IMG/VR virus record: IMGVR_UViG_3300045921_000040
Location: 1 to 63,389 of that record
Strand: one strand, 5' to 3'
Length of the DNA stretch: 63,389 nucleotides
Source of the DNA: a virus
Taxonomy: Duplodnaviria; Caudoviricetes
This document shows positions 41,477 through 45,746 of the stretch, one piece after another; positions within the stretch are counted from its first letter, which is position 1; every line of letters starts with the position of its first letter. The translations under genes were made by a program, and so were the position numbers. The notes under the pieces are model-generated. The model was given only the letters and a program-made list of their open reading frames with translations, searched no databases and was not told the DNA's origin.

Positions 41477-41685
41477 TGAACAGGATTGCTATTGCCGTAA
41501 CCCTTATCGGGCTTGGTCTGACCCTTCTCGTACAGACTGTGCCAACCGCTGCACAGCAGCGTGAGTATTACCTCGTAGCGCAGTGGGTTGGCGACTACGG
41601 TCAGCGGTTTTGCAGGTATAGTAACGGCACTGTGCTGAATGTCGGTGTGAATGTGTGCCCGCTCAGCATCAAGGCTTGGATGTGA
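41476..41685 (+). CDS. Small secreted Cys-containing protein
   Basis: Signal-peptide-like N-terminus; FCRYSNG..CPLSI. Confidence 0.55.
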   Translation: MNRIAIAVTLIGLGLTLLVQTVPTAAQQREYYLVAQWVGDYGQRFCRYSNGTVLNVGVNVCPLSIKAWM

Positions 41686-42977
41686 TGACAAACCTTATCG
41701 TTTGCGATGCAGAGACCTTTTACGACCGCACGTTCAGTTTATCCAAGCTTACTACGGAAGAATATATCCGCCACGAGCTTTTTGAGACCATCGGTTGGGC
41801 AGTGAAGGTCAATGACGAGCCTGCACAGTGGTTCTCAGGGCCGAAGCGTGAAGTCAAGCAGTGGCTAGACCAGTTCCCGTGGGGTGACAGCATCGCTGTG
41901 GCGCACAATGCCGCATTCGATATGGCTATCCTTAACTGGCACTTCGATATCCGTCCCAAGAGGATTGCAGATACCCTCTCCATGCTGCGAGCCATTGACG
42001 GGCCGGATGCAGGTAACAGCCTAGCTAAAGCTGCAGAACGCTATGGGGTGGGAAAGAAGGGCGACGAGGTCGTCAATGCGCTTGGCAAGAGGCGGCTGGA
42101 TTTCACCCCACAAGAGCTTGCTCGGTATGGTGAGTATTGCATCAACGACGTCGAGCTTACCTACAAGCTCTTTGAACATATAGCTCCGCTACTGCCCGCC
42201 AGCGAGCTTCGCCTAATTGACCTTACCATACGTATGTTTACGGAGCCCACTTTGGAGCTGGATAGGGACGTATTGGAAGAGCACCTGACCGAGGTTAGGG
42301 AGAAGAAGCAGAAGCTCATGGATGCGATCACCGCAGATAAGAGCGTGCTCATGTCCAACCCGAAGCTGGCCGAGCTCCTTATGAGCCTCAAGGTGGCGCC
42401 GCCGACAAAGGTTAGCCCAAGAACCGGGAAGACCACATGGGCTTTTGGTAAGACTGATGAGGCGTTTAAAGAGTTGTTGGACCACCCTGACCCTCGGGTG
42501 CAGACTATTGTCGCTGCTCGCATTGGAGTGAAATCGACTCTTCAAGAAACCCGCACGGAACGGTTTATTTCCATCGCCAATCGTGGGACGCTCCCTGTTC
42601 CTTTGCGCTACTATGCTGCACACACAGGGCGCTTTGGGGGTTGCTTAGTTGACGATACCCAGGTTACGGTGTATGACCCATTCTGGGGCGTTTGCAACAA
42701 ACGCATTGTTGATGTGCTGCTAGACGACCTTGTGTGGGACGGAGAAGAGTTCGTTTCGCACGATGGTGTAGTTTTTAGCGGGTTTGCAGAAGTCATTGAG
42801 TGGGATGGCGTAAAAGGGACCGAAGACCATGTCGTATTCACGGACGCCGGAGAGATGTCGCTACGAGAGGCAATGCAGGGAAATCACCGCATCAAAACTG
42901 GTGGCGACATTTCCGAAGACGCTGTGGACGCCGCTAGAAAGTTGCTACGTAACTACAAAAACCAAGATAAAGTGTAA
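41685..42977 (+). CDS. polA: DNA polymerase A, N-terminal part (3'-5' exonuclease) fused to split-intein N half
   Basis: DAET, AHNAAFD, YCINDV exonuclease motifs; extein ends HTGRFGG, then CLVDDTQV intein block A. Confidence 0.88.
   Translation: MTNLIVCDAETFYDRTFSLSKLTTEEYIRHELFETIGWAVKVNDEPAQWFSGPKREVKQWLDQFPWGDSIAVAHNAAFDMAILNWHFDIRPKRIADTLSMLRAIDGPDAGNSLAKAAERYGVGKKGDEVVNALGKRRLDFTPQELARYGEYCINDVELTYKLFEHIAPLLPASELRLIDLTIRMFTEPTLELDRDVLEEHLTEVREKKQKLMDAITADKSVLMSNPKLAELLMSLKVAPPTKVSPRTGKTTWAFGKTDEAFKELLDHPDPRVQTIVAARIGVKSTLQETRTERFISIANRGTLPVPLRYYAAHTGRFGGCLVDDTQVTVYDPFWGVCNKRIVDVLLDDLVWDGEEFVSHDGVVFSGFAEVIEWDGVKGTEDHVVFTDAGEMSLREAMQGNHRIKTGGDISEDAVDAARKLLRNYKNQDKV
42642..42977 (+). mobile_element. 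Split intein, N-terminal half
   Basis: Starts with Cys; TEDH block B; ends at a stop codon. Confidence 0.82.
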
Positions 42978-43599
42978 ATGTCAATGCGGCGCAGAGAAAG
43001 AGATTAGGGTAAAAGATATACTTAGCGGAAGAAGTAAGTCGTGCCGGTCTTGTGCGTTTCGCCTAAGAGCCGCAAAAATGCCTAAGGCCGAAAGGGTAGC
43101 TAGAGCTAAAAAAGCTTCTACCGCCGCCGCTGCAGCGCTTGCTGCTAGGATGGTCAATCACCCATATAGGTTGAAGTATGGCGATGCGTACGATTATTTG
43201 CTGGAATTAGCTTCCAGCGCAAAGAGCAGATGCTGTAACCCTAACCATAACGCATATGTTAATTATGGGGCACGGGGTGTAACTTTTGGGTTCCCATCTG
43301 TAAGCGCTTTCGCCGAATGGGTATTGGATAATATAGGCCCAAAGTCGGATGCTTCGTACTCTATAGATCGTATAGACAACAACAGAGGCTACGAGCCCGG
43401 TAATCTACGGTGGGCAACTCGTCTTGAGCAAGCGCGCAACAGAAGGGCTTACAAAAGAACCAAAAATGGAGAACGTATACGTTATCTAAAAGACCTACGG
43501 CCAGACTTAACATACGAAACAATCCGCATATGGATTGCTAAGGGCATGGACGACGAAGAAATACTTGGGAGAAAAAAGTATGCTCGTTCCAGTATATGA
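42829..43599 (+). CDS. Free-standing HNH homing endonuclease between the split-intein halves (start uncertain)
   Basis: CKCQCG, SCRSC, YGARGV, SIDRIDNNRGYEPGNLRWAT..QARN. Confidence 0.85.
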   Translation: MSYSRTPERCRYERQCREITASKLVATFPKTLWTPLESCYVTTKTKIKCKCQCGAEKEIRVKDILSGRSKSCRSCAFRLRAAKMPKAERVARAKKASTAAAAALAARMVNHPYRLKYGDAYDYLLELASSAKSRCCNPNHNAYVNYGARGVTFGFPSVSAFAEWVLDNIGPKSDASYSIDRIDNNRGYEPGNLRWATRLEQARNRRAYKRTKNGERIRYLKDLRPDLTYETIRIWIAKGMDDEEILGRKKYARSSI

Positions 43600-43657
43600 C
43601 ATTAGGAATTGTGGGCCTAGACGTAGGTTTGTGGCCAATGGAAAGTTAGTACACAAT
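43580..43657 (+). mobile_element. Split intein, C-terminal half (26 aa)
   Basis: VYDI..FVANGKLVHN followed by Ser. Confidence 0.82.
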
Positions 43658-45352
43658 TCAGAGTCCATTAACCTTCAAAACCTTCCTCGCAAAAGTCCGT
43701 TAAGGAAAGCCATCAAGGCCCCGGAAGGCTACGTAATTATTGACTGTGACTCCTCGCAGATTGAAGCGCGCACCCTTGCGTGGCTGGCTGAACAGAATGA
43801 CCTTGTTGAAGCCTTTGGTCGTGGAGATGACGTTTACAAGATTATGGCTTCGGCCATATACGACGTGCCAGTCGAGGAAGTAACCGCTGAACAACGGTTT
43901 GTAGGAAAAACAACAATTCTTGGTTGTCTTGCCGAGGGAACTTTGGTATTAACCGATAGAGGTTGGGTAGCAATTGAACACGTTACCCTCGATGACCGTC
44001 TTTGGGATGGGGAAGAGTGGGTATGCCATCAAGGATTAGTGAAGAAAGGCATCAAAGAAACATTGAATCTTTGCGGGCTTTGGTTGACGCCAGATCACAA
44101 AATATTGTGCGGGACGCAGTGGTTGGAGGCGCAATCAGTGGTGCAAGACAGCGCTACCCTCTCCCTAGCATTGGACACCGGAGCGGTAACTTGGTTGTCA
44201 CCGGATATGTTAAAGGGCCACGTGGAGGTGTGGCCTCGCTTATCGTGCAGTGCGATTGCGGACGCCCTGAGTACACCGTTGACCGCCACAACTTTAAGGA
44301 CTTCAAAAGCACACGTTGCCCCCTCTGCGGCAGGCGGGAAGGCCACCGCAAGCGGTATTGGAATTACATCTCTGCACTCCCCGACGAGCAGCACAGGGTG
44401 CGACTCCTTAACCGGCTTTCCGCCGCAATCAATCGGTGTCACGTCCCCAGTAGCAGGGCGTACGCCGACTACGGGGGTAGAGGTATTACTGTACACAAAC
44501 AGTGGTGAGAAGACCGGGCGGCTTTCCTCAGGTACGTCCAGACGGTGCCCGGATGGGATGACCCAAACCTCGAAATGGACCGCGAGGACAACGACCGAGG
44601 ATACGAACCCGGCAACATCAGGTTTGTCACACGCGCCGTCAACCATGCAAATAAGAGAAAAGTTAAAATCCTTCAGACGGAACTTGATGACCTACGACAT
44701 CGCCTACGCAGGGCCGAGGAACAGATACACAGTTGCGACAAATGCCGGGCCAATTATCGTACATAATTGCGGTTATGGCATGGGGGCGGAAAGGTTCCAG
44801 ACACAACTGAAAGCCTTTGGTGTAAACCTTTCATTAGAAGAATGCCGCCACATTATTCGTACATACCGGCAAACCTATCCACAAATTGTCAAGCTATGGT
44901 CTAACGCTGACCGCGCATTAGATGCTCTGCGCTCACAACGCACTTGTGAGCTTGGGCGTGAAGGGGTGCTACAATTAGACCTGTTCGGTATAAAGCTACC
45001 CAACGGTATGTACCTACGCTATAACAACTTGCGTGTTGACAATGACGGCGAACTTGTTTATGATACAAAGCAAGGGAAGAGCGTTGTACCTACGAAAATA
45101 TACGGGGGGAAATCTGTTGAGAATATTACCCAAGCCTTAGCCCGCATAATCATAGCCGAGCAAATGCTGATGATATCGCGCAGGCTGCGCGTGGTTCTGA
45201 CTGTGCACGACAGCGTTGTAGCTTTGGCTCCTGAGGAGCAAGCTGGAGAGGCTAGGGCATTTGTAGAGCAGTGTATGCGAACACGCCCAAAGTGGGCACC
45301 AGGGTTGCCGTTGGGTTGCGAAAGTAAGGTGGGAGTGTGCTATGGAGGATAA
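43580..45352 (+). CDS. polA: DNA polymerase A, C-terminal part with split-intein C half and a second intein
   Basis: GGGAG RBS; MLVPVYDI..KLVHN then SESINLQNLP; motif A DSSQIEAR; motif B KTTILG/CGYG; motif C VHDS. Confidence 0.88.
   Translation: MLVPVYDIRNCGPRRRFVANGKLVHNSESINLQNLPRKSPLRKAIKAPEGYVIIDCDSSQIEARTLAWLAEQNDLVEAFGRGDDVYKIMASAIYDVPVEEVTAEQRFVGKTTILGCLAEGTLVLTDRGWVAIEHVTLDDRLWDGEEWVCHQGLVKKGIKETLNLCGLWLTPDHKILCGTQWLEAQSVVQDSATLSLALDTGAVTWLSPDMLKGHVEVWPRLSCSAIADALSTPLTATTLRTSKAHVAPSAAGGKATASGIGITSLHSPTSSTGCDSLTGFPPQSIGVTSPVAGRTPTTGVEVLLYTNSGEKTGRLSSGTSRRCPDGMTQTSKWTARTTTEDTNPATSGLSHAPSTMQIREKLKSFRRNLMTYDIAYAGPRNRYTVATNAGPIIVHNCGYGMGAERFQTQLKAFGVNLSLEECRHIIRTYRQTYPQIVKLWSNADRALDALRSQRTCELGREGVLQLDLFGIKLPNGMYLRYNNLRVDNDGELVYDTKQGKSVVPTKIYGGKSVENITQALARIIIAEQMLMISRRLRVVLTVHDSVVALAPEEQAGEARAFVEQCMRTRPKWAPGLPLGCESKVGVCYGG
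43925..44767 (+). mobile_element. Contiguous intein (281 aa) in polymerase motif B
   Basis: CLAEGTLV..TPDH...TYDI..IIVHN followed by Cys. Confidence 0.85.
44023..44766 (+). pseudogene. Out-of-frame HNH endonuclease nested in intein 2, interrupted by TGA at 44506
   Basis: ORFs 44002..44508 and 44545..44766 share one frame: QCDCG, RCPLC, YGGRGITVHKQW*EDRAAF..MDREDNDRGYEPGNIRFVT. Confidence 0.75.
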
Positions 45353-45746
45353 TGAACTACACCCGTTGGTGACATTGCTTCTCAAACGGATGGATAGCCA
45401 TCCAGAGGAATTCCAAGTCTCTCGCCCCCGTTGGGATTACGCTATTAATGCAATCAAACAAAACGGTAGCGAAGCCGATATAGACGCACTCGACACAAAA
45501 TTACGCCTTGTACGTCTTAACGCCGCGCATGAGTGGGCGCTTGACGAGCTTCTCAATGGTGAGGAGCGCCGTAAGGAGCAAGCCAAAGAACGAGAACAAA
45601 AAGTGATCCGTCAGGCGGCTTCGCTTATACAAAACATCGAGCCGCGAATAGTTGCTAGCGAGACTGGGACCGCCCTTTTGGGGGACATCGCGCTTGCCTC
45701 ACCTCAAGCGGCTGCAAACATTTTAGGTAAGTTGTGGAAGGAGTAA
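45342..45746 (+). CDS. Hypothetical protein
   Basis: LLLKRMDSHPEEF; coupled ORF. Confidence 0.6.
   Translation: MEDNELHPLVTLLLKRMDSHPEEFQVSRPRWDYAINAIKQNGSEADIDALDTKLRLVRLNAAHEWALDELLNGEERRKEQAKEREQKVIRQAASLIQNIEPRIVASETGTALLGDIALASPQAAANILGKLWKE

Follow-up and report, generated by a model that had tools for sequence, protein, structure and literature searches.

Can one stretch of DNA serve both as the linker of a contiguous intein and, in another frame, as the gene of a homing endonuclease? The question is raised by intein 2 of the family-A DNA polymerase gene (polA) in IMG/VR virus record IMGVR_UViG_3300045921_000040, a complete Caudoviricetes sequence of 63,389 bases with terminal repeats and a G+C content of about 54%, to which we refer as the window. 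We put a probability of about 85% on the reading that intein 2 is a class-1 intein of a phage family-A polymerase, that its linker is overprinted by an HNH-like gene in the +2 frame, and that this nuclease is broken here by a TGA codon. The layout is real and conserved, and it adds an HNH-like nuclease in a family-A polymerase intein to the known out-of-frame cases. Three features set the window apart: its nuclease frame stops prematurely, a fractured and an overprinted form stand together in one gene, and an intein-free allele is present in the same sample.

Two reading frames across intein 2

We examined the polA frame of intein 2, which an initial annotation of the window had described as open for 281 amino acids from Cys to His-Asn. 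It indeed runs through exactly 281 codons without a stop, the first being TGT (Cys) at 43925 and the last AAT (Asn) at 44765-44767, and its terminal codons, CAT AAT (His-Asn), are followed by TGC (Cys). Intein 2 displays all class-1 features, namely, a Cys1 nucleophile, TxxH in block B, a C-terminal His-Asn and a +1 Cys, and among 50 aligned inteins, window included, C1, T55, H58, H280 and N281 were invariant. The insertion point lies in a conserved stretch of the polymerase, between GKTTILG and CGYGMG, which we take to be motif B of the enzyme.

An AlphaFold2 model of the intein, built with the 50 aligned inteins, reached per-residue confidence (pLDDT) values of 89-97 over amino acids 1-90 and 90-96 over amino acids 250-281, with 33-38 over amino acids 100-245. 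The top Foldseek rows for this model were all mini-inteins or HINT domains (the DnaX mini-intein 7cfv, RecA, DnaB, gp41-1 and NpuDnaE), with 7cfv at an E value of 1.5e-3 and the best rows between 1.5e-3 and 0.1 at a probability of about 1.0. The linker between the two splicing parts, amino acids 98-246 of the polA frame, is predicted by the model to be disordered, and S, T, G, A, P and R make up 64% of it in the window (median of 54% in 45 relatives), in agreement with the featureless, S/T/G-rich middle noted at the outset.

The arrangement recurred widely. A tblastn search with the polA-frame product returned 192 phage records (145 from Salmonella, 11 from Escherichia, and the rest from Vibrio, Pseudomonas, Caulobacter and others), 164 of which cover at least 80% of the query. 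The +2-frame product matched the same places with a shift of 77 bases, that is, at the same frame offset, and both frames were open in Salmonella phage vB_SenS-Ent1 (Ent1), Vibrio phage 97.13, Pseudomonas phage MR14 and EBPR siphovirus 2. A scan of IMG/VR yielded 80 loci, in which the intein and nuclease parts were located by profiles and stops were then counted. Besides the window, the full-length set held 68 loci from IMG/VR and 4 from GenBank, which makes 73 elements and 60 unique sequences. Over 277 to 299 codons, the polA frame contained no stop in any of the 73, the +1 frame contained 8 to 46 (20 in the window), and the nuclease always lay in the +2 frame. This +2 frame was free of stops inside the matched span in 67/73 elements. 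In L080 (L numbers denote individual loci), the sole stop lies two codons after the start, and in L028, L029, L031 and L079, a stop falls within the last codons of the nuclease match; the window alone has a stop in the nuclease core.

We compared the open polA frame with chance by resampling, in which the nuclease protein was kept fixed and synonymous codons were redrawn from the gene's own usage, a conservative procedure (5000 draws; 10 of the 60 unique sequences). Between 2.7 and 8.8 stops were expected in the polA frame, and stop-free draws made up 0 to 4.7%, depending on the sequence tested. The free-standing nuclease paralogue of the window, at 42829-43596, contains 15 stops in the equivalent frame. 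The openness of the polA frame over the nuclease gene thus exceeds chance.

Codon-level conservation in both frames, the comparison proposed by the initial annotation, was then assessed on the 60 unique sequences, and alignments built in the nuclease frame and in the polA frame gave the same result. The most variable polA codon position was the third in amino acids 1-60 and 256-281, with a mixed pattern in amino acids 61-75, while from amino acid 76 to 255 it was the second, which is the third position of the nuclease frame. Mean entropies at polA positions 1/2/3 were 0.86/0.70/1.54 for nucleotides 1-90, 0.85/1.55/1.05 for nucleotides 226-765 and 0.79/0.51/1.50 for nucleotides 766-843. Substitutions in nine disjoint, gap-free close pairs followed the same order: 10/4/41 in nucleotides 1-90, 10/16/24 in nucleotides 91-225, 54/312/99 in the middle and 8/6/38 in the C part. 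By this phase pattern, protein-level selection on the polA frame is confined to the two splicing parts, and the middle is simply kept open. At the level of the family, the alignments thus show selection on both frames, on the nuclease frame in the middle and on the polA frame at the intein ends.

Features of the window around intein 2, with related inteins at other loci (aa, amino acids; ORF, open reading frame)
Feature	Positions	Strand	Remarks
Intein 2, contiguous, 281 aa, 843 bases	43925-44767	+	Cys1, TPDH, His280-Asn281, then Cys (TGC, 44768-44770)
N-terminal splicing domain, aa 1-97	43925-44215	+	pLDDT 89-97 for aa 1-90; polA codon phase signal to about aa 60-75
polA-frame linker, aa 98-246	44216-44662	+	Stop-free, not conserved as protein; pLDDT <50
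C-terminal splicing domain, aa 247-281	44663-44767	+	pLDDT 90-96 from aa 250; polA phase signal back from aa 256
HNH-like homing-endonuclease gene, +2 frame	44017-44766	+	Start GTG 44017 or ATG 44023; stop TAA 44764-44766; about 249 aa
Zinc-ribbon-like CxC...CxxC, nuclease frame	44251-44328	+	C79, C81, C101, C104; C79/C101/C104 invariant, C81 at least 90% conserved
Premature TGA, nuclease frame	44506-44508	+	Arg codon (AGA, CGG or CGT) in relatives; silent in polA frame
Putative beta-beta-alpha metal motif, nuclease frame	44578-44652	+	D188-R189 ... N200 ... N212; downstream of TGA
Exonuclease part of polymerase, ORF	41655-42977		Pfam DNA_pol_A_exo1; 3' end is N-half of an intein from Cys 42642
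Free-standing nuclease-like ORF	42829-43599		Second frame, between the two polymerase ORFs
Second polA ORF	43535-45352	+	Third frame; site-1 intein C-half, extein 2, intein 2, extein 3
+1-frame overprinted inteins	L068 3878-4657; L073 2501-3421; L074 746-1681; L078 2501-3436; L082 3422-4357

The nuclease frame and its premature stop

We next considered the identity of the +2-frame product. It contains every motif quoted in the initial annotation. Among the PHROG families that carry the name HNH endonuclease, it matched phrog_374 (E 1.2e-28, in a match that spans the TGA), phrog_2081 (4.1e-20), phrog_3377 (4.5e-20) and phrog_8790 (2.6e-18), and its language-model neighbors bear the name "homing endonuclease family protein." No family was matched in an NCBIfam search of the frame, and a profile search of PDB sequences gave one weak match, the zinc-ribbon-like Cox5B at E 0.07. 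An AlphaFold2 model of the nuclease frame (42 aligned sequences) had a mean pLDDT of 84, rising to 93-97 over residues 120-210. D188, R189, N200 and N212 are invariant in the alignment of the nuclease family, and in the model the putative metal motif consists of strands at 186-189 and 201-204 and a helix at 206-211.

The ends of the nuclease gene lie inside the splicing domains. The start falls at intein nucleotide +92, as ATG in 40/55 and GTG in 12/55 unique IMG/VR loci, the remaining 3/55 having ATG or GTG one codon later; GTG 44017 of the window occupies this position. The start codon is formed by the Glu-Trp codons (GAA TGG or GAG TGG) of the WDGxEW motif of the intein and is preceded by a G-rich run, TGGGAYGGNGARGA, containing Shine-Dalgarno-like words. 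As in the window, a TAA that straddles the final CAT AAT closes the gene in 19/55 loci; in 24/55, the gene ends 25 bases upstream of the last base of the intein. We lean towards the view that intein and nuclease gene form one dual-coding lineage that is old, large and still mobile, spread over dozens of metagenomic phages and no fewer than 192 records of cultured phages. With a start derived from a splicing motif and a stop from the His-Asn codons, neither partner would easily change alone.

Our model of the element is as follows. The whole 281-codon insert would be translated along with the polymerase, the N part (about 97 residues) and the C part (about 35 residues) would form one HINT domain, and the intein would splice out in cis, the roughly 150 residues between the two parts acting as a disordered tether. 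The DNA of the tether, together with parts of both splicing domains, would encode a separate HNH-like homing endonuclease of about 249 residues, presumably made through internal initiation on the polymerase mRNA. This nuclease would cut intein-less polymerase alleles of co-infecting relatives, and repair would copy the intein along with the nuclease gene. Selection keeps the polA frame stop-free over the nuclease gene while its amino acids remain unconserved. In the window, a single base change has made a TGA out of a nuclease Arg codon and leaves the polA-frame protein unaltered.

In the window, the TGA splits the nuclease frame into 44002/44017-44505 and 44509-44766. The change is silent in the polA frame because the window reads GGT where L005 reads GGA, both encoding Gly. 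The initial annotation had called the element fully overprinted; a contiguous intein with an overprinted nuclease-like gene is what we found, but the word "fully" does not hold for this genome, since its nuclease frame is interrupted. A 21-kb contig of run X1, which may itself be where this DNA came from, reproduced the window sequence, TGA included, with no difference and no indel. Run X3 belongs to the same sample as X1, and one of its contigs, of 1,084 bases, was also identical to the window, TGA included. The contigs of four runs contained no indel across the stretch, so that the break of the polA frame for which the initial annotation had allowed was found neither as a stop nor as an indel. 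An alternative genetic code for TGA was considered and ruled out: TGA closes 17 of the 45 long ORFs of the window genome, including the paralogous nuclease at 42829-43599, and the genome contains no tRNA gene.

The window nuclease is 80% identical to the intact ones of L005 and L006. It retains all 21 invariant residues of the nuclease alignment, so that the break is recent. The TGA falls between the helical core and the putative metal-binding motif. Most likely, the nuclease is inactive in this phage and the element persists as a splicing-only intein heading to a mini-intein; the copy is probably decaying in that direction, with the TGA as the first step.

Several observations weigh against our reading. 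A Pfam search of the nuclease frame gave no family, and no HNH model even at E 10, so that the HNH endonuclease that the initial annotation had called clear is clear for PHROG profiles only. A Foldseek search of the PDB with the nuclease model gave no solved relative, with nothing at E 1e-3 or better, and nuclease-like structural matches were weak: PacI (3m7k_A) in VIA-align, for example, had a Z score of 4.8 with a root-mean-square deviation of 3.6 over 84 residues (rank 2 of 48,161 chains), and both it and CAD, at Z 2.6, fall below the level that this tool rates as reliable. Canonical HNH_3 domains have Asp-His where the present family has Asp-Arg. The invariant Asp-Arg puts catalytic competence in question, intact relatives included, and the name HNH-like reflects this difference as well as the PHROG names and the faint likeness to PacI. 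The start codon, for its part, is kept because the Glu-Trp of the intein is kept, and its conservation alone is no proof that it is used. The contigs supporting the TGA come from a single sample (runs X1 and X3), X9 covering only parts of the stretch. In run X5, which represents a variant strain, the contigs stop at 44504 and resume at 44523, at a depth of 2-4 and right at the TGA; this break at 44505-44522 may mark a polymorphic site at the TGA, or may be due to chance. Of the 18 runs listed, no RNA run contains the stretch. Finally, splicing, internal initiation and cleavage are all steps that we infer.

Among other explanations, the one closest to ours keeps the layout but holds that the window nuclease is still functional, through read-through, through the TGA being a minority variant or through cooperation between two pieces (44017-44505 and a restart at GTG 44545), so that the element would be an active homing unit. 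The identity to intact L005 and L006 fits this view, as do the single disabling change with every family-invariant residue kept and the GTG-started ORF at 44545-44766, and the X5 contig break could hide a variant. The same TGA, however, ends 17/45 long ORFs in a genome with no suppressor tRNA, is present in the contigs of both runs covering the position and divides the helical core from the putative metal-binding motif, and the mini-inteins of close relatives indicate that nuclease loss is a common fate. We therefore regard a functional nuclease in this phage as doubtful. Programmed ribosomal frameshifting could also yield the nuclease, either as a fusion of N-extein, N-intein and nuclease or, by two shifts, as an in-frame domain. 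The overlap of the frames inside the N-terminal splicing domain, of about 130 nucleotides, would permit a fusion, but nothing direct speaks for it, although no search aimed at slippery sequences or stimulatory structures was made; an ATG or GTG with an upstream G-rich run stands at a fixed place in 60/60 unique sequences, and nucleases of this family have their own starts where they are free-standing or lie between split halves, which makes frameshifting very unlikely.

The remaining explanations deny the dual-coding layout. Site 2 might be a fractured gene with a split intein, its polA frame open by chance and its C-half beginning at Met 44687. Site 1 of the same gene has that layout with a related nuclease, and Met 44687 stands one residue before TYDI, much like the Met before VYDI in the site-1 C-half. 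The ATG proposed by the initial annotation as a C-intein start is real, but Met occupies this position in just 10 of the 50 aligned inteins, with P, Q, R, N or E in others, and nothing points to a C-intein with a start of its own. Fractured relatives have 6 to 27 stops in the frame of the N-half and the C-half in another frame, as opposed to 0 stops in 73/73 elements at site 2, where resampling expects 2.7 to 8.8. We consider this explanation still less probable than frameshifting. Least probable of all, and close to negligible, is an artifact in which sequencing or assembly indels shifted a normal in-frame HNH domain: we found no point in its support, the offset is the same in 73 independent records, four cultured-phage GenBank genomes among them, and the contigs of four runs are free of indels. 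The reading of intein 2 as a contiguous intein overprinted by a nuclease gene that is broken in the window is thus the one we retain.

Empty, reduced and fractured forms

Close relatives document the later steps of such decay by in-frame loss of the nuclease part, leaving inteins of 137 (L022), 144 (L039), 158 (L042), 182 (L033) and 180 (L083) amino acids; the L022 mini-intein is 76% identical to the window in the shared parts. In run X3, a 301-base contig (depth of about 4) from a related phage joins 43905 to 44771 without an intein. It differs from the window at 7/68 bases upstream and 2/130 downstream, and 22 other letters stand in for the intein together with the 19 extein bases before it and the +1 codon after it. 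This intein-free allele is in frame, with Ala for the +1 Cys and Ser-Val for the Thr-Thr found in the window just upstream of the insertion point. The contig thus fixes the intein boundaries and shows that empty target alleles coexist in the same sample.

The polymerase gene of the window is split into several ORFs. The ORF at 43535-45352 gave a Pfam DNA_pol_A match (E 7e-29), and its site-1 C-half ends in ...VHN, followed by the extein SESINLQNLP. At site 1 (42642-43645), the gene is truly fractured, and both a split intein and a related nuclease are present: there are 17 stops in the frame of the N-half, and with the nuclease in +1 and the C-half in +2, three frames are used. The site-1 N-half (42642-42977, stop at 42975) overlaps the HNH-like gene at 42829-43599 by about 150 bases. 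At its other end, the HNH-like gene runs into the C-half ORF, for which TTG 43535 or the ATG of MLVPVYDI serves as the start. The fractured layout of site 1 also occurs in L006, L014, L087, L088, L089, L091, L093 and L094. Close cultured relatives were sought by megablast of 41600-45400 against phages, and only a 79-base match was found, in 3 records. On the minus strand, an ORF of 183 codons lies at 44095-44646, antisense to the nuclease region; it is probably a composition by-product of a doubly constrained stretch.

A third layout consists of contiguous inteins of 260 to 312 amino acids with the nuclease in the +1 frame, inserted at a third polymerase site between YGG(K/L)L and CEN..Q, where the window has no intein. 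Besides the loci in the table, it was found in L095, L110, L114, L122, L123 and L125, and L081 (3422-3826) corresponds to the L082 intein with the nuclease part cleanly deleted (135 amino acids). At 2501-2689, L081 and L082 also match profile positions 1-63 of an intein N-terminal part, for which the profile detected no C-terminal counterpart within range; this may be another split or divergent intein.

We then asked how these layouts are related. A wider search for the nuclease gave 83 matches, most of them without an intein half detectable by the profiles used. A maximum-likelihood tree was built from 67 nuclease sequences, namely, 23 of the 60 unique +2 sequences, 10 +1 sequences, 9 fractured ones and 25 hand-picked from the 83 "free" matches; it is a quick, unrooted tree in which many forks are weak, and the "free" status depends on the profiles used. 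The +2 sequences formed one clade, with a Shimodaira-Hasegawa-like approximate likelihood ratio test (SH-aLRT) value of 99, and so did the fractured sequences (90; 8 of the 9 rows at 97). The +1 sequences formed two separate groups, and one group nests among free-standing genes (95). Only four layout changes suffice to explain the tree, the minimum possible being three. One clade per main layout implies that the layouts are old and stable, and identities reaching down to about 40% inside the +2-overprinted clade likewise imply a long-lived state. The suggestion of the initial annotation that the site-2 form is an intermediate on the way from contiguous to split inteins is therefore unsupported. 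The data fit repeated capture of free-standing nuclease genes by inteins.

Comparison with known out-of-frame endonucleases

The initial annotation overestimated the novelty of the arrangement, since out-of-frame intein endonucleases of other nuclease families are already known from preprints of 2025-26. In the "non-canonical" actinobacteriophage inteins described by Gosselin, Arsenault and Gogarten, the endonuclease gene is endonuclease VII-like and lies in frame 3, or is antisense and of LAGLIDADG or Vsr-like type; in that set, HNH occurs only in frame, and an origin by invasion of the intein by a free-standing endonuclease gene is proposed (bioRxiv 10.1101/2025.01.02.630785). As in the actinophage cases so described, the window has a contiguous, splicing-competent-looking intein with the endonuclease outside the frame of extein and splicing domains. 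It differs from them in having an HNH-like gene (PHROG 374), in its host gene, which encodes a family-A DNA polymerase and belongs to phages that are not part of the actinophage set, and in that the nuclease ORF enters both splicing domains, with its start in the WDGxEW block and its stop on the His-Asn. Phillips, DeSimone and Gogarten report a LAGLIDADG endonuclease in a +2 ORF of a cyanobacterial dnaX intein, for which they credit Gorbalenya 1998 (bioRxiv 10.64898/2026.09.14.751524). That system shares with ours the +2-frame endonuclease, an overlap with strong selection in the endonuclease frame and relaxed selection in the extein frame, and full, mini and intein-free alleles side by side; it differs in its nuclease family (LAGLIDADG versus HNH-like) and in residing in a gene of a bacterial chromosome rather than a phage polymerase.

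An out-of-frame HNH gene without splicing domains was described by Arsenault et al. (PMC11855218). As in ShiLan, an HNH-type gene is hidden here in another frame of an insertion that is open in the frame of the host gene, but unlike ShiLan, which has no detectable splicing domains, the present element has canonical intein blocks and a HINT fold. Dassa et al. (Nucleic Acids Research, 2009; PMC2677866) described fractured genes with GIY-YIG and Vsr-like genes, and only suggested that HNH "could fracture genes." In those fractured genes, an endonuclease gene lies between the N and C parts of an intein, overlapping both, mainly in phages. Site 1 of the window matches this description, whereas at site 2 the host frame is unbroken. 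Our literature search, confined to a limited collection of papers, found no description of this HNH-like gene in a family-A polymerase or Jerseyvirus intein, although the supplements of the bioRxiv preprints may list further cases.

A single gene family includes overprinted and mini forms as well as fractured and intein-free ones, and the gene of the window combines two of these. If our reading is true, they offer a natural series for studying the entry of endonucleases into inteins and the origin of split inteins, in which the premature stop of the window would be a snapshot of the step from full element to mini-intein; the lineage also bears on the model in which split inteins arise from invasion by endonuclease genes. 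An intein linker could then be a mere stop-free spacer of about 150 residues, which is relevant to intein engineering, and the cultured phages of the lineage would allow direct study of homing by an out-of-frame endonuclease.

Among cultured phages, Ent1 (HE775250.1, SEP1_gp37) and other Jerseyvirus records have a homologue of the element at this polymerase site, and the +2 ORF is there too. The polA frame of the Ent1 element is 31% identical to that of the window; its nuclease frame is 43% identical and, unlike that of the window, intact. Databases annotate such polymerase inteins as endonuclease-less; the Ent1 record, for example, describes the polymerase intein as "encoding splicing domains" only, with no endonuclease. 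Annotation of this kind overlooks a whole nuclease gene in at least 192 genomes of phages, among them widely used phages of Salmonella and E. coli. Beside its polymerase gene, the Ent1 record (L001 4852-5897) also holds a helicase intein with an in-frame LAGLIDADG endonuclease, so that canonical and overprinted inteins occur together in such phages.

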